Positions 2,636-38,332 of a stretch of 53,830 nucleotides of DNA are shown one piece after another. Position 1 is the stretch's first letter. Every line of letters starts with the position of its first letter. The notes under the pieces were generated by a model. It saw only the letters and a program-made list of their open reading frames with translations, did not search any database and was not told the origin of the DNA. Source of the stretch: an uncultured candidate division Zixibacteria bacterium. GTDB taxonomy: Bacteria > Zixibacteria > MSB-5A5 > GN15 > FEB-12. The position numbers and the translations under genes are program-made. The DNA lies in assembly GCA_937900185.1 (NCBI GenBank), contig CALCCW010000229.1:1-53830 (forward strand), written 5' to 3'.

Positions 2636-3070
2636 TTATATAAGACCATTAATAGTCCTATATTGTTTTTTATCTATATACTTATTATATTCTGCTATTA
2701 CATCATCGCTAGACCTATCATCTATAAATGATGCGAAACCAAAATACTTAACGGCTAAATAATATTTCCATGCACGTCTTTTTCTCAACCACCGTAATAC
2801 TGATATTGAGTCTTTGTCAATAATCTTTTTCATATTACGGTAAAACCTATCATCAGCTATCTTTTTATTATAGAGTGTACGTTCAACTTTATAAGATGTG
2901 CGTAAATCTATTTTAGCTGGAGTAATATCTAAACCTAAAACTTTATTAGGTAATGCTTTACCAAACCAAGCTAATATTTTAAATTTATAATAATCACGCA
3001 ACTCTTTAGACGATGCTTTTTCAACATAATTACTTGTTTCTAAACCATATTTATTTATTATCTTTTTCAT
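2636..3070 (-). CDS. DUF1353-like protein, diverged paralog of 3051..3470
   Basis: Shares KYGLE..., ...IADD/ADL..., and a W/R-rich C-terminal ...YY.AVKYFG / WFVKEFGG pattern with its neighbour. The track start at 3103 is TTG; the first ATG is at 3070. Confidence 0.4.
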   Translation of the reverse strand: MKKIINKYGLETSNYVEKASSKELRDYYKFKILAWFGKALPNKVLGLDITPAKIDLRTSYKVERTLYNKKIADDRFYRNMKKIIDKDSISVLRWLRKRRAWKYYLAVKYFGFASFIDDRSSDDVIAEYNKYIDKKQYRTINGLI

Positions 3071-8712: not shown

Positions 8713-10303
8713 TTAATTTCTCCTTTTTCTGGTCACCACGCTTAGCAGTATTTACTTTGTCTTCCGCTGAAACATTTGTTGTTTGCGTATCTGGAACACC
8801 ACGTACTTGCTCTACTTGTGCCTTTGCTATTCTAGCTAATCTATCAGCATGTTCTTTTTCAGCTAGAGCAATTTCTTCTTCAGGATAATGTTTCAAAGTA
8901 CCAACTTTTTTCTTACTAATTAAACCTGCTTCTAAATCTGCTATAAGTATATCTTGATTTACAGTTACAATATCTAATTTATAAATTTCAGCTCTAATAA
9001 GAGATAATTGTTCTTCATCGATATTATGTGCAAGTAACAATGTTGTTATCTTATCCATTAAAGCACGTTGTGCATCTAATACCGGTATTGAAGGTATCAT
9101 CTTAAGCATTTTTGTACAACGCTCGATAGTTTTATCAAGATCTTTAATTTCATATCTTTCAGGATAGAATATAACTACTTCTCCCCCACTGCCCTCATAA
9201 CGATTCCATAAACTTGCTATATTTCTTTCACCTGTTTCCAGTACAGTTCCGATGGACGCTAAACCAGATTCTAGCCCTTCTAAATCAGCCTTTTTAGAAT
9301 CTGCTGATTCCATCTTAGCACGCATCGTTGAAACCGATAATGCGACAATTTGACGAAGCTCTTCTTTTAACTGGTCTTGTTTCTTAATAGAGGCTAATAA
9401 TGGGTCTGGTGATGGGTGAATATAACCAGGTCTATCTGAACCAATAGGATACTGACGACCATGGCGTACGCCAATTTTCTCTTTATCTACTACATCAGTT
9501 TCTTTCTTCATGAATTTATTCATTTCAGTGTTTTGATTTATCTGCTCAGTGTAGAGGGGAAAATTCGCTGAAATTAAATAATTAATATCGCTGGATGAAA
9601 TATTCATAAGTGCGATTTGGTATTTAGCTATATCCCGGAGTAGTCCATGATTTAATTCCAGTATTGTAAAAGGTACTAAACCTAATGCATTACTGACAGT
9701 ACCGCTTGGTGTTATTATTCTGTTAGGAAAAACAGTTATTTCTTCCTGTTTAGATTCAGTAATAATACCATCATTATCACGCTTATAAGAATTCCTATTT
9801 AATATAACATAGCGTAAGTTGCCATTAGTATCATAATCCCAATTCAATATGTCTTCACAACGGTAAACATAAAGATACGGTCTTGCGTCCTTGGTATCAT
9901 ATAATGTATTGCCTTCGAGTTTCGGCATATCGACAAATATTCCAACACGCCCCATACCCACTAATTCATTAAGAACTTTATTACCAATAAATGAATTCAT
10001 GGTACTACCGAAGTTGTCAACGCCACCAGATAAACCATCAATCGCAGTATTGTAAGATTGACCACCGCCGGTACGTTTAACTTCTGTAAAACGTTGGAAA
10101 ATTGCATCTTTAATATCATTAATTGCACCGCTAGCGAATGCAGGGTTTACAGTCATTGCTAAACGATATTTAAAGTCTTGTGCATCTTCCCTAGTAGAAT
10201 ATTGTTCAAGATACTTTTCAATATAAGAGTCACCACCGTTAAGTGTATCACGCCAAATACCGTACTCTGTTTTGTGTTTAATATATTCTGGATGTAAACT
10301 CAT
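8705..10303 (-). CDS. Portal protein
   Basis: 532 aa. ATGA overlap with the terL stop. The N-terminal pattern (W.D.L.GGDSY...YL......E....F..R) resembles DUF4055-type portals. Sits in the canonical position after the terminase. Confidence 0.8.
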   Translation of the reverse strand: MSLHPEYIKHKTEYGIWRDTLNGGDSYIEKYLEQYSTREDAQDFKYRLAMTVNPAFASGAINDIKDAIFQRFTEVKRTGGGQSYNTAIDGLSGGVDNFGSTMNSFIGNKVLNELVGMGRVGIFVDMPKLEGNTLYDTKDARPYLYVYRCEDILNWDYDTNGNLRYVILNRNSYKRDNDGIITESKQEEITVFPNRIITPSGTVSNALGLVPFTILELNHGLLRDIAKYQIALMNISSSDINYLISANFPLYTEQINQNTEMNKFMKKETDVVDKEKIGVRHGRQYPIGSDRPGYIHPSPDPLLASIKKQDQLKEELRQIVALSVSTMRAKMESADSKKADLEGLESGLASIGTVLETGERNIASLWNRYEGSGGEVVIFYPERYEIKDLDKTIERCTKMLKMIPSIPVLDAQRALMDKITTLLLAHNIDEEQLSLIRAEIYKLDIVTVNQDILIADLEAGLISKKKVGTLKHYPEEEIALAEKEHADRLARIAKAQVEQVRGVPDTQTTNVSAEDKVNTAKRGDQKKEKLND

Positions 10304-11982
10304 ACTCTATCTCCCATGTCTTCGTTCATACCACCATTCCATGCACATTTCAATGCAATTTCATTATAAGTACGTGTATGCATAAAATGGTCAGGTAAAC
10401 CTAAATTATCATAAATAAATATTATATTCCCCTGCTTATCTTCCTTAACAATCTTAACATTTGCTTTAAGGTGTGTTTGATATTCAATACTGATATTAGC
10501 AGGGAGCTTAATAGTTTCGTTCTTAAACTTCTTAATAACTAAATCCATCCACATGGCTCTGTTTACAGAGACCATCGGTTTCTCAATACTGGGATTAATA
10601 TCTCTGTCCATCTTAGCAACACCGTAAAAACAATAACGTACACGACCAGCGTGTCTTTTTGTAAAAGCTACAGACGCTCTCCGTTCCGGATTCGCATCAA
10701 TGACGCAATAATGTACCCCATACTGTTTCATAATGTCATCGAGTTCTTCAAAATGGTCAACACTGCCCGCATTTAAAATTTGTACTGGGTTATCATTAAT
10801 TTCACGTGAAGCTGAAAGCTCCCATGAGTCAACTTCCCAATGAATTTTTGTACCTACATCTATACCCATTGTAATAAATGTATTGAATGAATGTGCGTCC
10901 GGAAAAATGGAATAATTGCCTTTGCAAGATTCGATGTCTTCTTGACTGATTTGGTAAGATGATGGCACATGCGGTACACCCATTTTTGAGTTAAAGAATT
11001 CACGTTCTGCGTCATCATCTTCCAAACCCTTCAGAAAAGAAAGAGCGAGTTCAGCAGGAGTAATAGTAGAGGAATATAATTGATTGATATAGAAGCCACG
11101 ATTATCGCTGTCGCCGTCATTCGTTTTTTCAAATTTGCCGTCAGCTAAATATTCGTATTTGTTTTCTTGCGGAAGCGTCCCTTTACATTCACCACAGAAA
11201 ATGCGTGAACGCTTATAATCCATGTCATCTTGGTTGTCTCCGCAAATCTCGAGATTATCAAATGTTAATTCAATCTTGCGTGAACATAGTGGGCATGAGA
11301 AGAAATTGTGTTCTTGCGTCGTGTGCCTAAACATTTTATTTATTCCATAACCTTCAACTGTAGGTGTACTAATAGACCATGATTGTTTCTCGAATTGACC
11401 GCTCATACGTTCCCAAATTAATTCGATGTGTTCTTGAACCATTTGGTCAAGTTCATCAATCGCAATATTAGCTACTGGGATAGAAATTAGTTTGTTCTTT
11501 GCACGTGAACCACGAATATAAAGGTTAGCAATTCCTGCACGTTTATGACCCTTGTTCTTTGTATCAGTATATAAGTTGAGTAGGTGTGGACTGGTTTCGA
11601 TGGCGGGATCGAATCGTGATGCAGAGAAATCCCCGGCGTTGTCATCTGTTGGCAATACGTAAAGTACTGATTGTTTATGAACATCATTCTTATAGAATGT
11701 CCAATTTAATATGAGTTCGGTATAACCCATTTGAGCGGATTTCTGTCCGACATTCCTTGTAGCTAGCGAATCATGCATTTCACATAACCACGGATAATAC
11801 TGGAAGTTAAATGGTGCAGGTTCGATTGAACCACGTTTTGGCTGTATCATTCGGTATGACGTAGTCCATTCACTACAAGAGCTGATAGCACGGTGTTTTA
11901 CCGTTGCATTAAGTGTATCGGCAAATTGTGTAAAGAATGCCATACTAATTAAACCTATTGTATTTATCACTACCCATTTCAT
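10300..11982 (-). CDS. terL: Terminase large subunit, lambda GpA-like
   Basis: GQKSAQMGYTE (GpA-type Walker-A-like), VLPTDDNAGDFSASRFDPAIETSP, and an internal CPLC...CGEC zinc ribbon. Start set to ATG 11982, 1 nt after the upstream stop; the track ORF extends to 12087. Confidence 0.85.
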   Translation of the reverse strand: MKWVVINTIGLISMAFFTQFADTLNATVKHRAISSCSEWTTSYRMIQPKRGSIEPAPFNFQYYPWLCEMHDSLATRNVGQKSAQMGYTELILNWTFYKNDVHKQSVLYVLPTDDNAGDFSASRFDPAIETSPHLLNLYTDTKNKGHKRAGIANLYIRGSRAKNKLISIPVANIAIDELDQMVQEHIELIWERMSGQFEKQSWSISTPTVEGYGINKMFRHTTQEHNFFSCPLCSRKIELTFDNLEICGDNQDDMDYKRSRIFCGECKGTLPQENKYEYLADGKFEKTNDGDSDNRGFYINQLYSSTITPAELALSFLKGLEDDDAEREFFNSKMGVPHVPSSYQISQEDIESCKGNYSIFPDAHSFNTFITMGIDVGTKIHWEVDSWELSASREINDNPVQILNAGSVDHFEELDDIMKQYGVHYCVIDANPERRASVAFTKRHAGRVRYCFYGVAKMDRDINPSIEKPMVSVNRAMWMDLVIKKFKNETIKLPANISIEYQTHLKANVKIVKEDKQGNIIFIYDNLGLPDHFMHTRTYNEIALKCAWNGGMNEDMGDRV

Positions 11983-12496: not shown

Positions 12497-12517
12497 TTTA
12501 ACCTCGTTATCTATTCC

Positions 12518-12523
12518 ATTATA
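12518..12523 (-). promoter_or_regulatory. Candidate -10 box (TATAAT on minus strand) of the late/packaging operon
   Basis: Perfect TATAAT about 22 nt upstream of ATG 12496. No good -35, so it is possibly activator-dependent. Confidence 0.3.
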
Positions 12524-12551
12524 TTAACTCTATATGTTATAAAATAAACAC

Positions 12552-12581
12552 TTTTGTTGTACAATGCGTTGTACAACAAAA
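12552..12581. promoter_or_regulatory. 13-bp perfect inverted repeat TTTTGTTGTACAA-tgcg-TTGTACAACAAAA (candidate activator/operator site)
   Basis: Centre lies about 45 bp upstream of the candidate -10. TGTACAA(C/G)TTGT-type motifs recur at 15241-15312. Confidence 0.4.
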
Positions 12582-12720
12582 CACCAATTTTCAACTAACG
12601 TTTCACAACGTAAACACTCTTTTTCTACTTAACGTTAATATATCACGTTTCAATGTAATTTCAAGCGATTTTATAAAAATAAATGCAAAATAGTTGTAAG
12701 TCGTTGTGGTGCAATGAGTA

Positions 12721-12762
12721 ACGAATGTTACTTAAACGAATGTTACTTAAACGAATGTTACC
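12721..12762. repeat. 15-bp tandem repeat ACGAATGTTACTTAA x2.8
   Basis: Copies at 12721-35, 12736-50 and 12751-62 (partial). Confidence 0.9.
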
Positions 12763-12800
12763 GGTAATGTGAGTAAACGTAAGTAATGCATTATTCTTAG

Positions 12801-12853
12801 TAACGTGAGTAAACGTAAACAGTTTAAACGTGTGTGAGTATAGGTTAAATTTA
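12801..12853 (+). repeat. Repeat element X, copy A (GTGAGTA...CAGTTTAAACG...GTGAGTA)
   Basis: About 80 percent identical, in direct orientation, to 32090-32145. A third GTGAGTAAACGTAA lies at 12769-12782. Confidence 0.85.
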
Positions 12854-12911
12854 TATGCTCTTAAACACGCTTAAAATCAATTTAAACGGTATCTGTTTAA
12901 ACGTTAGTAAT

Positions 12912-12942
12912 GATTAAACCAATATTTGATTAAACCAATATT
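12912..12942. repeat. GATTAAACCAATATT x2 (15-bp direct repeat, 1-nt spacer)
   Basis: Copies at 12912-26 and 12928-42. Confidence 0.9.
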
Positions 12943-12958
12943 AACAATTACTACTACT

Positions 12959-13040
12959 ACTTTTTCCTATACTCTATATATAAACATAACTAACAAATGT
13001 TTCCTATTGAAAAATATAAATAACAGTAGTAATAGTAAGG
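12959..13040 (+). repeat. Repeat element Y, copy A
   Basis: About 75-80 percent identical to the reverse complement of 31896-31975 (core TTTTTCCTAT(A)CTCTATATATAAACA). Confidence 0.8.
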
Positions 13041-13183
13041 CACAATATAAGTCATTGCAACACAATAACATAAGTCCATACCAATAGATATAATAGTAAT
13101 AATGAATGATAAGTCATTGCAAATCAAGCACTTGCAAGAACACGTATGCCGTGAAACCGGTATTTCGGTACATTCCAATGCTG

Positions 13184-13275
13184 ACGTTTCCAATCGTTAA
13201 CGCATAATCACTGATAACACATTGACGTTTGCTCAGAGCAATTTCGCCGTTTAACGTTTACGTTTCCAATCGTTA
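13184..13275. repeat. Two copies of ACGTTTCCAATCGTTA (13184-13199 and 13260-13275)
   Basis: Perfect 16-bp direct repeat. TAAGTCATTGCAA is also duplicated, at about 13049 and about 13109. Confidence 0.9.
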
Positions 13276-13490
13276 CTGAATCTCAAAAATGTCGGGGACA
13301 GATACCGATGAAACGCATTTTTTAACACTGGTATTATTGCGGTGTGAAACAGCGTTTAAATACGGTAAACAGCTATTTAGAGGTGAAATAGTGTTTAATA
13401 TCACCACGCTTGATACCAATATTACACTTGCTTGATACCGGTATTAACGTGGTTATATCATCGCTATAGGCACTCATATTAGGCACAGTC

Positions 13491-13628
13491 ATTATTATTA
13501 ATTAATACCAATATTAATACCAATATTAATTATTATTAATTATTATTAATTAATCTCAATATTAATTAATCTTAATATTAATCGCTATATTAATTAATTG
13601 CTATATTAATTAATCCCAATATTAATCG
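13491..13628. repeat. Extremely AT-rich degenerate tandem array (TAATACCAATAT x2, TAATTATTAT x2, then five units ending in ..ATAT, mostly TAATTAATCNCAATAT-like)
   Basis: About 140 bp with very few G/C. Candidate DNA-unwinding/iteron region. Confidence 0.85.
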
Positions 13629-13697
13629 TACTCCATGAATCCTGGTATTGCACGATACCCACATAGCTCTATCGTAAATTACCCAGCAAGATTAAGC

Positions 13698-13727
13698 GGA
13701 TCTAACTTCATTTCAGAAATTAGATCC
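13698..13727 (-). terminator. Hairpin (8-bp stem GGATCTAA/TTAGATCC, 14-nt loop) just after the stop of 13736..14563
   Basis: Called on position and stem. There is no clear U-run, so terminator function is uncertain. Confidence 0.3.
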
Positions 13728-13735
13728 ACCACGCC

Positions 13736-16155: not shown

Positions 16156-16170
16156 ATTATTTTCTCCTAT

Positions 16171-16246
16171 ATTATACAATGCCAATATTATACAATGCCA
16201 ATATTATACAATGCCAATATTATACAATGCCAATATTATACAATGC
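16171..16246. repeat. 16-bp tandem repeat ATTATACAATGCCAAT x4 plus one 12-nt partial copy
   Basis: Copies at 16171-86, 16187-202, 16203-18, 16219-34 and 16235-46. It fills the ligase-nuclease intergenic gap and contains the ligase stop codon. On the minus strand each unit reads ATTGGCATTGTATAAT. Confidence 0.95.
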
Positions 16247-20873: not shown

Positions 20874-21013
20874 TTTATCACCATAATATCATAGTCCAGA
20901 CAAAGAAGAATTATTCTGTCAAGCATTCTTCTTGCCTCGAAATTTCCACGTGCAATACCCATATTGCATTTCGTTACCAGACGTTCCAACCGACATTTTG
21001 TGTAACCGCTCAT
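20870..21013 (-). CDS. 47-aa hypothetical protein
   Basis: Not in the track. AGGAGG RBS; MSGYTKCRLERLVTKCNMGIARGNFEARRMLDRIILLCLDYDIMVIK. Confidence 0.5.
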   Translation of the reverse strand: MSGYTKCRLERLVTKCNMGIARGNFEARRMLDRIILLCLDYDIMVIK

Positions 21014-21053
21014 TTGATTACCTCCTGTGCATATCAATATCAATATTGAAAAT

Positions 21054-21120: not shown

Positions 21121-21188
21121 CATACTGATATTGATATACGATTTTGCAATATCAATATTGCAATACCGCATTGTCAATATCGCATTGA
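21121..21188. repeat. Array D1: five tandem ~14-bp CAATAY-N-RTATTG-type units
   Basis: CATACTGATATTGA / TATACGATTTTG / CAATATCAATATTG / CAATACCGCATTGT / CAATATCGCATTGA. Confidence 0.85.
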
Positions 21189-21218: not shown

Positions 21219-21246
21219 AATATACAGCCCGCAATAATAAATTCAA
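21219..21246 (-). promoter_or_regulatory. Sigma70-like promoter TTGAAT-16 nt-TATATT (minus strand), reading into array D1 and the terminator
   Basis: Minus-strand read: GAGCTTGAATTTATTATTGCGGGCTGTATATTATTTT. Confidence 0.4.
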
Positions 21247-21303
21247 GCTCTAAACTAAAAATAATTGAATCTTTTTTTATATTATATATTGAATTTGCGT
21301 GTA
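21239..21303 (+). repeat. Conserved block Z, copy D
   Basis: AAATTCAAG...TAAAAATAATTGAAT...TTGAATTTGCGTGTA is similar, in the same orientation, to 31718-31784. Confidence 0.75.
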
Positions 21304-21332
21304 GCATAAATCGTGCCAACTAATATTGGGAT

Positions 21333-21360
21333 TAATACCGTATTCACAATACCGTATTGC
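21333..21360. repeat. Array D2: TAATACCGTATTCA + CAATACCGTATTGC
   Basis: Two tandem 14-bp units overlapping the last codons and stop of 21344..21814. Confidence 0.85.
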
Positions 21361-26524: not shown

Positions 26525-27376
26525 TTATGCAAAATCCGGTACAGTATAAGGTATATCATAAATGTCAAGTTCTTTCTGGATTGCTTGGTGAAATTCCAAA
26601 TCCGAAACTTCAGCATTAACCCAACCTAAAGTTACATTTATAATATTAGGTCCGAGTAAACCATGTAACATTTCCTGTATGTCATGTATTTCTCCAGGTC
26701 TACGTAACTTCTTTTTACTCTTGGGTTTAGAGTCTTTAAACTTATCAATATTAACCTTTTTATCGCCCTTATTAGTCTTAATAACACGACATAATTCATA
26801 CTGTTTCTCAGGCTCTTTACGAAGAGTATATAAATCTCTAATATTATTTGTTGTAAATTTACAACGCAATACCTCTTCCTGTATATCTTCAGGAATTGTC
26901 GTAAACATGTTGCGTACTTGACACCAACCGAAACTCATGCCAATTTTATCTGCAATCTGTTGTAAACTCATACCAGTATTGCGTAGAGTTTCAACACCTT
27001 TAGCTTCTTGAGCAATGTTTAAATCTTCTCTTTGAACATTCTCTGTTAAGTTAGTGAGAATCATTTGTGTTAATGATAAGTCTTTCAATATACAATCAAA
27101 CTCTTTATCACCGTTTACTAACAATGCTGTATAACGTCTATGTCCTGCTACAAGCTGGTATTGGAAACCATTCTCTGTAGCGACCTCACTTCTACTAACA
27201 ATAAGCGGATTCTGTAAGCCGTTTTCAGCTATATCAGCGGCTAATGCCAGTGTTTTTGGTGCTGAGGGATTTACCTTACCACGACAGTTAAAATCCCAAT
27301 CTACGAATAATTCCTTTTTCTTGACTTTAATCAGTTGCATTCCTTTAACTTTTTCCATTACTTTAACTTTTTCCAT
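26525..27376 (-). CDS. ParB/Srx-domain protein with HTH (ParB-like 2)
   Basis: NPLIVSR...YQLVAGHRRYTAL, LTENVQREDLN, and the HTH MSLQQIADKIGMS. AAGGAG RBS. Confidence 0.8.
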   Translation of the reverse strand: MEKVKVMEKVKGMQLIKVKKKELFVDWDFNCRGKVNPSAPKTLALAADIAENGLQNPLIVSRSEVATENGFQYQLVAGHRRYTALLVNGDKEFDCILKDLSLTQMILTNLTENVQREDLNIAQEAKGVETLRNTGMSLQQIADKIGMSFGWCQVRNMFTTIPEDIQEEVLRCKFTTNNIRDLYTLRKEPEKQYELCRVIKTNKGDKKVNIDKFKDSKPKSKKKLRRPGEIHDIQEMLHGLLGPNIINVTLGWVNAEVSDLEFHQAIQKELDIYDIPYTVPDFA

Positions 27377-29483: not shown

Positions 29484-29497
29484 CAATACGAGTATTG
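29484..29497. promoter_or_regulatory. Single palindromic unit CAATAC-GA-GTATTG upstream of the SNF2 gene
   Basis: Perfect 6+6 inverted repeat, same family as the arrays at 21.1, 31.6 and 32.2 kb. Confidence 0.6.
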
Positions 29498-29620
29498 AAA
29501 AAGCAGTTTAACGTGATACTTAGCACGTTACGTTATAGTCGTAATAGACTGCAATGGAATGTTTCCACACCATCTAAGTATTATAGCTACTCACGGTCAG
29601 TTTAACCTGCACGATAGCTA

Positions 29621-30217
29621 TTAATCTTCTTCGTCCGGCAAAACGTTTTCAGCGTTTTTAAAATCACCTACGACATCATTTGTGTCATCAGGCAAATCTA
29701 TAGTTTTCGCTGTACCTTCGCTTTTGTAAGAAAACCATTTAAATTTATCATTACTACACTGGTCAACTTTCAAATGAGAGCAAGCACCCATATGTTTTGC
29801 AATGCTTTTACCACGTCTTTTTGCCGTTGTACTTTTCAGATAAAACGTGCAGAATCCGTGTTCAGTATAAAAGATAAATTCAGGTCCGCTTGTTGCATAA
29901 TCTTCCTCTTTTGCTTCTTCAGCAATCTTTGCAAATTCGGCATGATTCTGGTCATAAACAATACGGAGTTTAGGTTCAAATGCTAATGCTTTTGCTCTCA
30001 TTGCAAGAACCATTACATCAATTTCAGTACCTAAATCTATAGACTCTTCACCATCTTTCAGATAGAAGTGTCCTACCGATATAGAACCATCTTGACAACA
30101 TGCACTGTTACCACAGCTGATTTCCAATCTCGGCATTGTATCATAACCTGCGAACAGGTCATTGAAATTTTCAAGAGCCGAAGCATCTTGAACCATCAGT
30201 TCGTTCTTTTTAGCCAT
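29621..30217 (-). CDS. Hypothetical protein with acidic C-terminal tail (possible ssDNA-binding protein)
   Basis: 198 aa ending ...NVLPDEED. Located in the replication module. The functional call is weak. Confidence 0.3.
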   Translation of the reverse strand: MAKKNELMVQDASALENFNDLFAGYDTMPRLEISCGNSACCQDGSISVGHFYLKDGEESIDLGTEIDVMVLAMRAKALAFEPKLRIVYDQNHAEFAKIAEEAKEEDYATSGPEFIFYTEHGFCTFYLKSTTAKRRGKSIAKHMGACSHLKVDQCSNDKFKWFSYKSEGTAKTIDLPDDTNDVVGDFKNAENVLPDEED

Positions 30218-30477: not shown

Positions 30478-31416
30478 TTATTTTGTATTTGCTTCGTCAA
30501 GAAGTGCTTGAGCTTTGGCTCTTTTAGCTTCTTCACGTTTCTTAGCCGCAATAGCTTGACGCTCATCTTTTTCTTTCTTGAGCTGTTCAAATTTAGCTCT
30601 GCCAGCATCAATACTGAGATCATCCATCTGAACAATCCATTTGATTACAGCCTGTCCGCCTTCAACAGCGTTTTTGCAATCTGCAACAATTTCTTTCACA
30701 ACAGACATATCTGCATACAGGTCTTTAATCTCTGTATTTTTACGAACTTTAGGTTCGGGCATAAATTCAGTAACAGTCTGTCCACGTTTTTCTTTCTTAA
30801 TATCATTAAGACGTGCTTTAACTGTAGGACCAAATTCACTTGCAGGTTCTGTAAGTGCGGCTGACAAGTAATTAGCTTGTTCATCAGACGGAAGTTTAGC
30901 AAGACTAAAAGCATTACTAAGCCCAATATCTCCGTTGTCAACTTTCTTCTGAATATCAGCATTGAGTTTCAACAAACCTATGCGTTCATTCAGCCATTGT
31001 TCAGTACAACAAAGCATTCCACACAATTCTTTAAATGTCATTGTAGGACGTTCACCGAAGATTTTAATAATCTGACGGGTGTACTCAATAGGTTTAGTTT
31101 TGACTCTGCGTGAGTTACTGATAATCTGAGCAATCGCCATTTCTTCATCGCCCATTTCAACGATATTACATGGAATCCCTTCAAGACCAAGTTCTTTACT
31201 TGATGTGTAACGTTGCAAACCATTAACAAGTACATACTTGCCTTTTTCTTCAGTCTTCTTAACACAAATAGAATCTGTAACACCGATCTTAGCGATTGAA
31301 TCTCTCAACTGCTTGTAATCTTCACCCTCGGTGTTTACTGAACGCAATGCAATTTCACTTGTTTCGATGTTTTCAAGTTTTACTACAGCGACTTCAATCT
31401 TTCTTTTCTCTGACAT
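30478..31416 (-). CDS. ParB-like protein 1
   Basis: KYVLVNGLQRYTSSKELGLEGIPCNIV..., ISNSRRVKTKPIEY (ParB box-like), with a Lys/Glu-rich C-terminus. AGGAG RBS. Confidence 0.7.
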   Translation of the reverse strand: MSEKRKIEVAVVKLENIETSEIALRSVNTEGEDYKQLRDSIAKIGVTDSICVKKTEEKGKYVLVNGLQRYTSSKELGLEGIPCNIVEMGDEEMAIAQIISNSRRVKTKPIEYTRQIIKIFGERPTMTFKELCGMLCCTEQWLNERIGLLKLNADIQKKVDNGDIGLSNAFSLAKLPSDEQANYLSAALTEPASEFGPTVKARLNDIKKEKRGQTVTEFMPEPKVRKNTEIKDLYADMSVVKEIVADCKNAVEGGQAVIKWIVQMDDLSIDAGRAKFEQLKKEKDERQAIAAKKREEAKRAKAQALLDEANTK

Positions 31417-31510
31417 GATAATGTCTCCTGTTACCTAAGTTACTTTCCAATATCAGTATTCCTTAAACTTGACGGTGTACTTCGCACGGTCTCTTAACAA
31501 TACCAGTATT

Positions 31511-31552
31511 AAAAAAAGGGTTACATTATGACAGACAAGCATAATGTAACCC
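31511..31552 (-). terminator. Intrinsic terminator oriented for the minus strand, with no upstream minus-strand gene
   Basis: Minus-strand read: GGGTTACATTATG-cttgtctgt-CATAATGTAACCC followed by TTTTTTT. Confidence 0.75.
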
Positions 31553-31593
31553 ATAACCTTAAAGGTTTAAATTAAATGTTGTGTCTGTGATCA

Positions 31594-31649
31594 CAATACC
31601 AATATTGCAATATCCATATTACAATACCGTATTGACAATACCGTATTAA
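31594..31649. repeat. Array F1: four exact-phase tandem 14-bp units
   Basis: CAATACCAATATTG / CAATATCCATATTA / CAATACCGTATTGA / CAATACCGTATTAA. Confidence 0.9.
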
Positions 31650-31717
31650 TTTTGTGAGCGTAATTAAAAATCACACTCAAAAATCTAACTCAAATATAAG
31701 TTACCATTCATTATTAA

Positions 31718-31784
31718 AAAGTCAAGTGTTATTAGTAAAATAATTCAATATTTTTTCCTTTATAATATAATGAATTTGCGTGTA
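31718..31784 (+). repeat. Conserved block Z, copy F
   Basis: AAAGTCAAG...TAAAATAATTCAAT...TATAATATAATGAATTTGCGTGTA is similar to 21239-21303. It contains TTCAAT-16 nt-TATAAT on the plus strand. Confidence 0.75.
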
Positions 31785-31895
31785 ACACGTTAAACTTAAA
31801 AGTCAAGTCAATTACTGAAAATACTGTTTTATTTTTTCAGTAAGGAAAAACAGTAAATTGATAAAACGTTTAAACAGAATAACTTATACCGGAAA

Positions 31896-31975
31896 TTACT
31901 AATATACTGTTCTTTATATTTATTACTTATAGAACATAATCAAGTTAGTGTTTATATATAGAGATAGGAAAAAAC
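31896..31975 (-). repeat. Repeat element Y, copy F (inverted relative to 12959-13040)
   Basis: The reverse complement reads TTTTTTCCTATCTCTATATATAAACACTAAC...AACAGTATATTAGTAA. Confidence 0.8.
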
Positions 31976-32089
31976 AGTAAAATAGTATGAATAAGACTTG
32001 AAATATGTTTTTCCGGTGTTAAATTAAATTATATGCGGAATATATCGTTTAATCATTAACGTTTAAACTATTAAATTAAGCTATTCCGC

Positions 32090-32145
32090 TAACGTGAGTA
32101 CGTTGAAAACAGTTTAAACGTATATGAGTATAGATTAGGTTTAAG
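32090..32145 (+). repeat. Repeat element X, copy F
   Basis: TAACGTGAGTACGTTGAAAACAGTTTAAACGTATATGAGTATAGATTAGGTTTAAG, compared with 12801-12853. Confidence 0.85.
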
Positions 32146-32165
32146 ATTGCTTAGAATTGTTTAGT

Positions 32166-32220
32166 TAATACCGTATTGACAATACCGTATTGTAATTGTT
32201 CTAAGACAATACTGGTATTA
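32166..32220. promoter_or_regulatory. Array F2: TAATACCGTATTGA / CAATACCGTATTGT / (13 nt) / CAATACTGGTATTA, overlapping the probable rightward early promoter
   Basis: Contains TTGACA (32176-81) and TTGTTC-17 nt-TATTAA candidates. It lies 35-90 nt upstream of ATG 32254. Confidence 0.6.
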
Positions 32221-32253
32221 TTAACTGATGTTTGGAAACGTCAAGGAGAAATC

Positions 32254-32565
32254 ATGCTAAATAAGATTTTATCGGATAAGCGAGTTTTAACAGATGAAAC
32301 AAACTTTAATATTGGACAATACGGGGATTGTAAAATGATAAATATCCCAGCTAGTTATTTATGTAAGCTGTGGAAAAAGGTTTACAATAAACCGTGTCCA
32401 TTACATTATTACATAGCAGATGCTTTACCAATACTGAGATTGGAGCATAAACATATTTGGGCTGAACCAGATTTAAGTGATTATAATTTAGATATTTTTA
32501 GTAATTGGAAACCAGATTTAAGTGATTATATATTTGAGCCGGATGTAGATAAATTTGAACCTTAA
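32254..32565 (+). CDS. Small protein, DUF3820-like (putative)
   Basis: FNIGQYGDCKMINIPASYLCKLW resembles the DUF3820 fGKYkG..l.diP..YL.W pattern. ATG 32254 has an AAGGAG RBS; the track start TTG 32176 lies in the operator array. Confidence 0.4.
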   Translation: MLNKILSDKRVLTDETNFNIGQYGDCKMINIPASYLCKLWKKVYNKPCPLHYYIADALPILRLEHKHIWAEPDLSDYNLDIFSNWKPDLSDYIFEPDVDKFEP

Positions 32566-35951: not shown

Positions 35952-36126
35952 CTTAACAACATTAGCTGACAAAACTGAATACAAAGAATGGTTATTAGAA
36001 AAGGCTAAAGAGGAATGTAAGAAATGTAAGTATGATTGTAAGTTGAAGAATGTTAAAAGTCATTGTTTAAATTATGAGGAGAAGAAAAATGAGTTTAGTA
36101 GACACACTTTTAAGTATGGACGATAG
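35944..36126 (+). CDS. Hypothetical Lys/Cys-rich protein
   Basis: 60 aa; overlaps the start of the methylase gene. Confidence 0.45.
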   Translation: MDNLTTLADKTEYKEWLLEKAKEECKKCKYDCKLKNVKSHCLNYEEKKNEFSRHTFKYGR

Positions 36127-36910
36127 TGAAAATGTCGATGAACATAAAACTATTATTAAAGCACCATTTGGTTGGTTAGGTGGTAAAGCATTTATGTGTG
36201 ACCAAATAAATGAGATAATGCCTTTAAGGAAAATTTATGTTGAACCATTCGGTGGCAGTGGTATAACATTGCTTAAACGTAGACAAAGTGATATAGAAGT
36301 TTTTAATGACCGCAATTCCGGTATTACTGATTTTTATCTTACAATACAAGATGACCCACAATATATCATTGATGGTATTAATGATATGATTTATAGTAAA
36401 GAATTATTTTACTACTACAAAAATAATTGGCAAACCATAACTGATAGGAAACAACGTGCATTGATATGGTATTATGTTATACGTACTAGCTGGGGCGGTA
36501 AAGGATTATACTTTGGCTTAGAAAAGACTAAAAACGTAACTAATCGTTTATATACAAATCTAAAGTATTTCGCAGAAATTAATAAACGGTTGCGTAATGT
36601 CATAATTGAAAATCACGATTATAAGTCATTACTTAAATATTATGATTCGCCGGATACAGTATTTTACCTTGACCCACCATATACCGGTTGTGATAATCAT
36701 TATGAATACCAAATAAATCACACTGAATTTTTAGAGCTAGTTTTTAGTTTATCCGGATATGTGTTAGTTAGTAATTTTGAATCAACAGAATACTTAGCTT
36801 GTGATTGGAATGAAACTATAATGGTTAAGCAACGTTACTCAATGCATAAAGAAGGTAAAAATAATAACGATAGAGTAGAAATGCTCTATATTAAGGAATC
36901 TAACAGTTAA
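36089..36910 (+). CDS. DNA N6-adenine methyltransferase, D12 (Dam) class
   Basis: PFGWLGGK, YVEPFGGSG (SAM binding) and FYLDPPYTG (DPPY). ATG 36089 follows GAGGAG; the track start at 36074 has no RBS. Confidence 0.85.
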   Translation: MSLVDTLLSMDDSENVDEHKTIIKAPFGWLGGKAFMCDQINEIMPLRKIYVEPFGGSGITLLKRRQSDIEVFNDRNSGITDFYLTIQDDPQYIIDGINDMIYSKELFYYYKNNWQTITDRKQRALIWYYVIRTSWGGKGLYFGLEKTKNVTNRLYTNLKYFAEINKRLRNVIIENHDYKSLLKYYDSPDTVFYLDPPYTGCDNHYEYQINHTEFLELVFSLSGYVLVSNFESTEYLACDWNETIMVKQRYSMHKEGKNNNDRVEMLYIKESNS

Positions 36911-37745: not shown

Positions 37746-37967
37746 ATGAAAGAACAGTTATCTAAAATATTATGGGATAAGAGTATTAGTATTAATAGAA
37801 TAGTTGATGTAATGGGTATTCATCGTCATACTGCTCACAGAATGTTAGAAAACCCTGAACAAGTATCATTAGAATTATTTATAGATACAATACTGAGATT
37901 AGGAATTGAGTTTGAAGTTAAAAATGGTAAGTTTATCTTATCAGCTAAAAATAAGGATTTATTATGA
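37746..37967 (+). CDS. Helix-turn-helix DNA-binding protein
   Basis: 73 aa; SINRIVDVMGIHRHTAHRML is HTH-like. Confidence 0.5.
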   Translation: MKEQLSKILWDKSISINRIVDVMGIHRHTAHRMLENPEQVSLELFIDTILRLGIEFEVKNGKFILSAKNKDLL

Positions 37968-37981
37968 GAGAAGGTGAAATA

Positions 37982-38332
37982 ATGTATAAAGATTACGGTA
38001 ATTGTAGTAGTGAACAAGAGATAATAGATAATGATAAAATGGTAACAGAGGCTAGTGGAGGTAAAAAAGCAGACGGTGGTAAGATTCGGTGGAGCTTGCT
38101 CTTGTGGGATTCGCTAATACCGGTAGTACGAGTGCTTATGTTTGGTGCTAGTAAATACGGTGAAGAGAATTGGCAAAAAGTATCATCGAGACGTTATCGG
38201 GATGCATTATTGCGTCATATTTTAACAGATGAAGAAATTGATAGTGAAACTGGTGAGCCACATTATGCTCATGCTATATGTTGTCTATTGTTTCTATTAT
38301 GGTTAAAAAAGCATACCGGCAACAGGAGCTGA
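37982..38332 (+). CDS. DUF5664-type protein (dATP/dGTP pyrophosphohydrolase-like)
   Basis: GGKIRWSLL...VLMFGASKYGEENW...YRDALLRHIL...ETGEPHYAHAICCLLFL. ATG 37982 follows AAGGTG. Confidence 0.55.
   Translation: MYKDYGNCSSEQEIIDNDKMVTEASGGKKADGGKIRWSLLLWDSLIPVVRVLMFGASKYGEENWQKVSSRRYRDALLRHILTDEEIDSETGEPHYAHAICCLLFLLWLKKHTGNRS

Follow-up and report, generated by a model that had tools for sequence, protein, structure and literature searches.

Leader terminators with competing helices are textbook regulatory devices. In the leaders governed by LicT/SacY through the ribonucleic antiterminator (RAT) sequence, or by PyrR, TRAP and ANTAR proteins, a strong intrinsic terminator lies between promoter and gene, and an upstream segment can pair with the 5' half of that terminator. 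Here we analyze the 53,830-nt contig CALCCW010000229.1 (the window), a phage genome or near-genome of 53.8 kb with 33.8% G+C, and describe two paralogous leader cassettes on its minus strand: module 1 in front of a ParB-like gene near 31 kb, and module 2 in front of the next operon near 21 kb. Judging from the sequence, we consider it fairly probable that these cassettes are operator-flanked attenuators that gate the parB-replication operon and the operon that follows it, and that they are cis-regulatory cassettes and not genes. Like the leaders named above, they show the promoter-to-gene arrangement, the strong terminator and the upstream pairing segment, and the small conserved hairpin that caps the alternative fold might serve as a recognition element. 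Unlike those leaders, they do not resemble RAT, PyrR-binding loops, GAG/UAG repeats or ANTAR hexaloops, and no cognate RNA-binding protein was found; moreover, the module-1 helix uses the terminator loop instead of the 5' arm, and operators flank the switch.

Phages offer further parallels. In lambda PR'-qut-tR' (the source of 6S RNA), in lambda pL/pR-nut-tL1/tR1 and in HK022 put, as here, a promoter is followed 100-200 nt on by a strong terminator and then by a long operon, and a short leader RNA is expected. The window differs from lambda N/Q and HK022 in that neither an N-like nor a Q-like protein was recognised, and in that boxA/boxB and a put-like double stem-loop directly behind the start are absent. 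Its palindromes lie downstream of the promoter and not inside it, unlike lambda qut, and control appears to be local, with one alternative fold per terminator, instead of a processive change of RNA polymerase. The P4 CI, N15 CA and P1 c4 systems share with the window same-strand complementary segments in a leader with a Rho-independent terminator upstream of the controlled genes, but the window has no C4-type match in Rfam and no lysogeny genes were seen in the phage. At the DNA level, the RK2 KorB-OB network (PMC11790492) and the dispersed SopB sites of phage N15 resemble the window in pairing a ParB-family protein, with N-terminal and helix-turn-helix (HTH) domains, with the absence of a ParA partner. 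As in KorB-OB, 13-bp palindromes with a central C/G occur throughout the genome and cluster at promoters, among them that of the candidate binder itself; unlike KorB sites as described, the palindromes here, whose binding is predicted, come in two lengths, 13 and 14 bp, form tandem arrays and abut terminators. Finally, Tn916 terminator/canT and ICEBs1 conAn (PMC11658703) are described as cases of mobile elements in which a terminator near the promoter restrains downstream genes and an RNA element governs read-through, as proposed here; those cis-antiterminator RNAs act processively on many downstream terminators, whereas each of the two terminators here has a competing helix of its own.

A protein search with ParB1, the product of the gene behind module 1, found three close relatives at 72, 60 and 56% identity (contigs L002, L003 and L004) and more distant ones. 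A further contig, L089, comes from the same metagenome as L004; it was found via its DNA polymerase (61% identity) and has module 2 in the same place and order. The elements of the two modules are as follows, each listed in the direction of minus-strand transcription.

31713-31787, minus strand: block Z of module 1, with its core ACACGCAAATTCATTATATTATA at 31783-31761
31725-31698, minus strand: promoter P_L1, -35 TTGACT (31725-31720), 16-nt spacer, -10 TAACTT (31703-31698)
31594-31648, unstranded: operator array 1, four palindromes, position kept in L002-L004
31588-31582, minus strand: segment 'a' (ACAGACA), complementary to T1 loop bases 31537-31531 (TGTCTGT)
31567-31555, minus strand: hairpin P1 of module 1, AACCT-TTA-AGGTT, apex of the alternative fold; L002-L004 conserve AAACC..GGTTAKGG
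31552-31511, minus strand: terminator T1, 13-bp stem, 9-nt loop, U7
31511-31498, unstranded: operator TAATACTGGTATTG, abutting the T1 U-run
31448-31511: post-T1 leader, where the U-run operator is followed by the conserved box GACCGTGCGAAGTACACCGTC (31491-31471) and then by operator GAATACTGATATTG (31461-31448)
30478-31416, minus strand: ParB1 gene (Pfam ParB_N and HTH_ParB), first gene behind T1, ribosome-binding site (RBS) AGGAG at 31429-31425
21333-21359, unstranded: operator pair where the gene preceding module 2 has its stop codon; L089 equivalent at 3003-3030
21234-21306, minus strand: block Z of module 2, core at 21302-21280
21246-21219, minus strand: promoter P_L2, TTGAAT-16-TATATT
21147-21188, unstranded: operator array 2, three units
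21124-21105, minus strand: hairpin P1 of module 2, TATGCT-AAATAAAA-AGCATA, overlapping the antiterminator 5' strand AGCATATAGTTT (21110-21099)
21092-21049, minus strand: terminator T2, 13-bp stem extendable by A/U pairs, 7-nt loop and U-run, bidirectional; bases 21087-21076 form the antiterminator 3' strand
21035-21048, unstranded: operator CAATATCAATATTG, abutting the T2 U-run
20876-21013, minus strand: first gene behind T2, 46 aa, RBS AGGAGG at 21026-21021; the L089 homologue has 49 aa

Read in the minus direction, each cassette presents block Z, a putative sigma70-type promoter, a 55-100-nt operator-array stretch, a small hairpin, a terminator, an operator at the U-run and an RBS. The two cassettes are the entries to the first two minus-strand gene blocks. 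The first-pass annotation of this DNA had proposed that the order of block, array and terminator recurs at 21 kb, and this is borne out. Block Z matches between 31713-31787 and 21234-21306 (blastn, 75% over 75 bp), the arrays match between 31602-31647 and 21141-21186 (85% over 46 bp), and the 23-mer ACACGCAAATTCANTATATWATA has exactly two copies, both on the minus strand (21280-21302 and 31761-31783), where 0.01 would be expected. Related phages share the order, module 1 in L002-L004 and module 2 in L089. Ahead of parB, L002-L004 carry block Z, a promoter, four palindromes, a small hairpin, a terminator of different stem sequence, a U-run, a palindrome, a box of the form GACCG..CCGTCA, another palindrome and an RBS. 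The segment after T1 is conserved in L002 and L004 and degenerate in L003.

The promoter hexamers with their 16-nt spacer occupy the same columns in all six instances (WIN31, WIN21, L089, L002, L003 and L004). The -10 of the relatives is TATATT, and the -35 in the L002-L004 leaders is TTGACT, TTGAAT or TTGCAT. Because the six instances align in both block Z and the hexamers, the cassette is conserved among paralogues and orthologues. The TTGAAT-16-TATATT promoter proposed in the first-pass annotation is present at 21246-21219, but the 31-kb terminator is not the orphan it was taken for, since P_L1 lies upstream of it. We infer the transcription starts from these hexamers. No promoter-like site of at least 9/12 matches was listed by the promoter scan between T1 or T2 and its gene (94 nt from the T1 U-run to the parB-like ATG at 31416, and 35 nt from the U-run to the ATG in module 2), and the downstream genes would therefore depend on read-through. 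An array-embedded promoter (TTGTCA-18-GATATT) was rejected, as its -10 and spacing are not conserved in relatives. Block Z itself has the invariant columns TAC.C.CAAAT.C..TAT in the six-instance alignment, and a TTGAC at 31811-31801, about 30 nt farther upstream of the module-1 copy, is conserved. With its -35 position unconserved, block Z does not qualify as a canonical sigma70 promoter, and a match to a sigma54 promoter (TGGCAC-N5-ATGC) is confined to the 21-kb copy. Possible roles for block Z are those of an activator site, an atypical promoter or an architectural site.

T1 and T2 are very probably real terminators, as their sequences indicate. In the minus sense, T1 reads GGGTTACATTATG (31552-31540), loop CTTGTCTGT (31539-31531), CATAATGTAACCC (31530-31518) and T7 (31517-31511), and the stem is perfect, exactly the 13-bp stem and U7 near the ParB-like gene that had been read at first pass. 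The 21-kb hairpin and U-run are likewise real, with the correction that T2 is bidirectional. Both stems start GGG/CCC and are followed directly by U7 or U6AU4, as intrinsic terminators are. T2 was picked up by a stock terminator scan, and T1 was missed because the loop limit of that scanner is 8 nt. In our own genome-wide scan, seven minus-strand sites in the whole window combine a hairpin at or below -9 kcal/mol with a T-run; the strongest two are 21099-21053 (-22.5 kcal/mol) and 31554-31516 (-19.3 kcal/mol), and the third (38343-38312) is an ordinary operon-end terminator between the convergent operons at 38.3 kb. For the two terminators, folding z-scores against dinucleotide shuffles are -4.7 and -8.2.

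The relatives retain these folds while changing their sequences. In the module-1 stems of WIN31, L002, L003 and L004, all 13 pairs are 100% paired, and 10/13 are changed on both sides. All five measures for the whole module-1 structure beat 500/500 shuffles, with 98% pairing as against 34-41% in slid controls. Between the window and L089, 4/14 pairs of the module-2 stem are compensatory, again with 100% pairing. The stem sequence thus varies, and pairing, the GC-rich base and the strand-specific U-run are kept in every relative. A hand-padded structural alignment was used for this analysis because automatic MAFFT misaligned the leader stems. Covariation supports the terminator stems and, as described below, the competing helix, within hand-built alignments of 4+2 sequences.

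What would allow RNA polymerase to pass such terminators? In module 1, a segment of 7-8 nt that lies some 45 nt farther upstream is complementary to the terminator loop (93.5% paired), and 5/8 pairs are changed on both sides among the four phages, giving the variants ACAGACA/TGTCTGT, ACCAGAT/ATCTGGT and CACGGCA/TGCCGTG. In shuffles, the 70 nt upstream contain a stretch of at least 7 nt perfectly complementary to the 9-nt loop at a per-sequence frequency of 0.0007-0.009. When the nascent RNA is folded to the end of the loop, the long-range helix around P1 is the minimum-energy structure in 6/6 leaders. In L003, the alternative helix pairs with the T1-equivalent 5' arm directly, and the whole-leader fold prefers the alternative over the terminator. 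In module 2, the competing helix is of the classical kind: AGCATATAGTTT consists of the P1 3' arm plus six more bases and is perfectly complementary to AAACTATATGCT (21087-21076), which comprises the distal terminator 5' arm and four loop bases, such that 8 bases of the 5' arm are shared with the terminator. This complement spans 12 nt in the window (4/20000 shuffles) and 9 nt in L089 (192/20000). L089 keeps 9/12 of the antiterminator pairs; three are compensatory, two of them in columns that also covary in the terminator.

The module-1 helix engages 7-8 of the 9 loop bases, and 0-1 nt links the loop strand to the terminator 3' arm. In H-type pseudoknot geometry, a loop helix and a hairpin stem joined by a linker of 0-1 nt cannot both be complete. 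These two points suggest that the module-1 helix is a competitor of the terminator and not a tertiary brace. The leaders thus combine a terminator between promoter and first gene with no intervening promoter, an alternative helix that excludes that terminator (in module 1, to judge by geometry), and covariation of the alternative helix. We regard it as likely that the competing helix is functional. Other leader devices were considered. The leaders as read contain no boxA/boxB-like element (including a boxA-like CGCTCTT) of the kind found in lambda N/nut systems. Rfam, whose families include riboswitches and the C4/CI antisense RNAs, gave nothing at threshold in the whole window or in permissive leader scans (best 13-25 bits versus thresholds of 33-195). 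A leader peptide was rejected for module 1, as the ATG in GGTTATGG is absent in L002 and the open reading frames (ORFs) have 3, 15 and 33 codons, and for module 2, as the ATGs lie at differing places in the window and L089. The first-pass annotation did not choose among its three options; its leader or attenuator option is the best supported, through the order of promoter, terminator and gene and the covarying competing pairing. Its comparison with lambda nut or HK022 put logic is not supported, as no boxA/boxB-like element, N- or Q-like protein or Rfam match was found. That no ORF explains these elements was also correct: 31417-32253 lacks ORFs of at least 60 aa, and the short ORFs that overlap the leaders are not conserved.

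We propose the following mechanism. The leader transcript would either end at the terminator, yielding a leader RNA about 160-190 nt long, or extend into the operon. RNA folding would decide between the two outcomes: before the 3' arm is made, the upstream segment would pair with the loop (module 1) or with the loop and the distal 5' arm (module 2), and the antiterminator-like helix that forms around or beside P1 would be incompatible with the full terminator. Read-through would occur when the alternative fold is kinetically trapped or stabilised by a factor. A dimeric DNA-binding protein on the flanking operators would set promoter output and/or RNA polymerase progress. The default state, termination itself and the effector and operator binder are parts of this model that we infer from the folds and the order of elements.

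Several points weigh against this attenuator model. The terminator fold is 2-14 kcal/mol more stable than the alternative, so that read-through needs a kinetic trap or a stabilising factor, and without a factor the alternative could be irrelevant. No N, Q, sigma or RNA-binding antiterminator family was recognised among the roughly 50 proteins scanned with Pfam and PHROGs. The module-1 helix touches mainly the loop, and its exclusivity follows from geometry instead of shared bases. Covariation was assessed in four sequences for module 1 and two for module 2, in alignments built by hand to fit the structures. The leader promoters are predicted from matches to the sigma70 consensus. A search of sequencing runs for RNA-seq support found a single run that contains the sequence, and it is a DNA metagenome. 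Lastly, most of the distant relatives (35-41% ParB identity) lack a leader terminator upstream of parB, and the device is therefore clade-specific.

ParB relatives number at least 194, from marine, sediment, soil and sludge sources. Of the 79 loci whose upstream sequence spans at least 300 nt, only those of the close clade have a strong leader terminator ahead of parB, and the leader terminator was rejected as a family-wide feature. The P1 consensus AACC..GGTTAKGG, sought in 89 loci, occurs only in the four known relatives, and a scan of GTDB genomes for the operator pair found nothing. In L005 (ParB 41% identical), the architecture is kept with a different palindrome, CTCAGCGGCTGAG, and a two-part terminator, and in distant relatives each end of the parB/primase intergenic region carries 14-bp palindromes that are specific to the lineage. 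Many distant relatives have a strong terminator right after parB or after the 198-aa gene X (in about seven distant loci, roughly 1 kb after the parB start). The operon thus appears to be punctuated by terminators across the family, as the lambda and HK022 operons are, which fits a read-through-dependent programme. In the window, the junction between gene X and the SNF2 gene (29484-29530, minus strand) has a weak hairpin, U5 and operator CAATACTCGTATTG. The same junction has strong terminators in L004 (10256-10285) and L005 (3991-4023), and in L004 the post-gene-X terminator is followed directly by about nine copies of an 8-bp unit, CAGTACGA (10290-10365).

Four other explanations were weighed; they are not mutually exclusive with attenuation. 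The terminators could be constitutive and merely dampen or insulate the operons against read-in from promoters in the origin region or the upstream operon, in which case there would be no switch and the alternative pairing would be incidental. An insulating terminator is documented for Tn916 (PMC11658703). The much greater stability of the terminator fold accords with such a role, as do the position of the bidirectional T2 after the replication operon and the terminators that relatives place between genes of the parB operon. However, the upstream gene and T2 are separated by a conserved promoter, no other promoter was listed for the downstream genes, and the competing helix is kept by compensatory changes in three independent variants. 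We regard this explanation as unlikely. Plain insulation is also the weakest of the three options raised at first pass, given that module 1 has no upstream gene and that both modules have their own promoter upstream of the terminator.

The modules could instead be two paralogous small-RNA genes, whose 160-190-nt products act in trans and include the loop-upstream pairing in their mature fold. Short phage transcripts have precedents in the 6S and oop RNAs of lambda, and each unit has its own conserved promoter and strong terminator, a stable fold with a low z-score and a conserved 9-nt loop length. Yet relatives share little of the transcribed sequence beyond the operator palindromes, P1 and the terminator, with no seed-like block visible, and Rfam has no match. 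Both units also directly front operons that have no promoter of their own, and the covarying pairing competes with the terminator, as is typical of cis switches. The existence of two such genes is accordingly improbable in our assessment. A terminated leader RNA of this size is an expected by-product of attenuation, and it could also act in trans.

Control of the P4/N15 type would involve the same segments differently. The P4 CI, N15 CA and P1 c4 RNAs act via sense-strand complementarities. By analogy, the loop of a terminated leader would pair in trans with segment 'a' of nascent leaders and enforce termination, as negative feedback or an immunity-like system. The covariation of the same-strand complementarity within the leader and the large 9-nt loop on a very stable stem suit this model. 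However, nothing in the present data separates trans from cis pairing, the complementary bases of module 2 lie mostly within the terminator 5' arm and are unexposed, Rfam has no C4/CI-type match, and no integrase or lysogeny genes were seen in Pfam/PHROGs-type scans of the window proteins; we rate such control as quite improbable. Least probable by far are purely DNA-level elements, such as replication-origin or centromere-like ParB-loading structures with coincidental U-runs: the 840-bp intergenic region between primase/helicase and parB, its repeat blocks shared with the ORF-free region at 12.5-13.7 kb, the two ParB paralogues and the genome-dispersed palindromes would suit them, but the order of promoter, terminator and RBS is conserved, and the stems vary freely while keeping pairing, a GC-rich base and a strand-specific U-run, which is the signature of an RNA terminator and not of a protein-binding site.

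The attenuator model includes the palindromes that flank the terminators. The CAATAC unit arrays described at first pass are real and recurrent, but each unit is a palindrome of 13/14 bp, CAATAC-N1-2-GTATTG, and the period is 14 bp. Such palindromes also abut the terminators and number about 54 genome-wide. The palindromes occur as a 13-mer, CAATACCGTATTG, and a 14-mer, CAATACTGGTATTG. Counted in the window as sites with at least 11/12 arm matches to CAATAY-N1-2-RTATTG, the palindromes number 54, as against 3.9 +/- 2.1 expected in first-order Markov random sequences, and 41/54 lie between 16.5 and 33.7 kb. Outside the two modules, a further array stands at the far end of the parB/primase region:

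32166-32220, unstranded: far operator array, on the side of the parB/primase intergenic region that adjoins the plus-strand (primase) operon

The orientation of the 13-mer central base relative to transcription is inconsistent among the window, L003 and L004, and palindromes also precede the oppositely transcribed operon. The sites are therefore better explained as symmetric DNA sites for a dimer than as RNA elements, and nut- or RAT-like RNA hairpins were rejected on the same two grounds. The different palindrome of L005 and the lineage-specific ones of distant relatives, which stand at the same places, likewise suit a DNA site. We conclude that the palindromes are probably operators bound by a dimeric phage DNA-binding protein.

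Which protein could bind them? ParB1 and ParB2 align to Spo0J/Noc/KorB structures over the N-terminal (CTPase-fold) and HTH domains, as expected of ParB/KorB proteins, and the ParB GxxR motif (G66, R69) is invariant in the family alignment. A 73-aa protein (37746-37967, plus strand) matches a Cro/C1-type HTH weakly (E 0.0013, short of the Pfam cut-off) and is conserved in L004 (38% identity), which shares the operator, including the putative recognition helix IHRHTA. ParB1, ParB2 and the 73-aa Cro-like protein are thus candidate binders, the last an equally good one, and each of the ParB proteins could have its own operator spacing, one the 13-mer and the other the 14-mer. That operator occupancy influences the outcome at the terminator is a tentative suggestion that falls a little short of our favour. 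A more specific version, in which a ParB clamp or Cro-like dimer on the U-run palindrome and the upstream array slows or blocks RNA polymerase while the fold is chosen, is doubtful; if true, DNA occupancy would be read out as termination efficiency, in an operator-coupled attenuator reused at two or three operon entries of a widespread lineage. We know of no precedent for operators that abut the U-run, as they do at both terminators and at the weaker hairpin at 29530-29484.

The RNA motif, which is absent from Rfam, and the phage lineage are undescribed. The cassettes provide a concrete regulatory map for phages of about 50-55 kb that are known only from metagenomes, and they add a covariation-supported RNA switch motif beyond Rfam. 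If the palindromes are ParB-family sites, KorB-like transcriptional control would extend to lytic phages and be linked to termination control. The compact promoter-operator-terminator unit could also be tried out in reporter constructs.

Palindromes and related repeats were also noted elsewhere in the window. The two ParB-family paralogues (30478-31416 and 26525-27376), with no ParA, keep their arrangement in relatives of 35-41% identity. Many palindrome copies lie inside genes or at gene junctions, and the dispersed sites look more like a parS/OB-type network than a few operators. A 14-nt cassette, CAATACGGAGATTR in the minus sense, appears to stand just before the start codon, near-identical at up to six minus-strand genes:

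19868, 20077, 25281, 25822, 26500 and 27910 (plus-strand coordinates): copies of the CAATACGGAGATTR cassette

It lies cleanly 5-18 nt upstream of three genes (starts 20072, 25817 and 27906), and the other three copies overlap the start in the ORF list and would need a re-called start. This cassette is an operator-like palindrome with the Shine-Dalgarno sequence GGAG at its centre; through it, translation initiation could be coupled to DNA binding or to an RNA hairpin. The ligase gene and its neighbour are separated by a perfect tandem repeat, 16-bp x 4.9, of ATATTATACAATGCCA (16169-16246), with an operator-like CAATGCCAATATTA in each unit.

The remaining features of the window are listed below.

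31416 to 21344, minus strand: gene block with the ParB-family gene, 198-aa gene X, SNF2 helicase, second ParB-family gene, family-A DNA polymerase and RNase H-like protein
29621-30217: gene X
21013 to 13736, minus strand: gene block with about 20 small unknown genes, an endonuclease and DNA ligase
12.5-13.7 kb: 1.2-kb stretch without ORFs
Farther along the minus strand: terminase and portal
From 32254, plus strand: 103-aa gene (32254-32565), 787-aa primase/helicase (DUF5906), Dam-like methyltransferase, 73-aa Cro-like HTH protein and dATP/dGTP diphosphohydrolase domain protein

An identical copy of the ParB1 protein is encoded on a contig of an ENA marine metagenome assembly. INPHARED and IMG/VR searches yielded no close relatives of the window phage, and the homologue search with the 156-aa gene upstream of module 2 was empty. 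A third leader with a promoter and hairpin precedes the terminase operon on the minus strand (12552-12664; gene start 12496): TTGAAA-16-TATATT (12664-12630) is followed by the hairpin TTTTGTTGTACAAC-GCAT-TGTACAACAAAA (12581-12552) and a broken U-run. On the plus strand, a protein with a dATP/dGTP diphosphohydrolase N-terminal domain (MazZ/DatZ-like; 37964-38332, and 1701-2222 in L004) adjoins the Dam-like methyltransferase (36074-36910), which hints at modified nucleotide metabolism. The second large ORF-free region (12497-13735) is packed with repeats (15-bp x 2.8, 16-bp x 2 and AT-rich arrays). Two of its blocks recur in the parB/primase intergenic region: 13056-12955 corresponds to 31878-31979, inverted (75% over 104 bp), and 12801-12853 to 32090-32143 (81% over 54 bp). 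The two ORF-free repeat regions may be two origins, or an origin and a packaging region.

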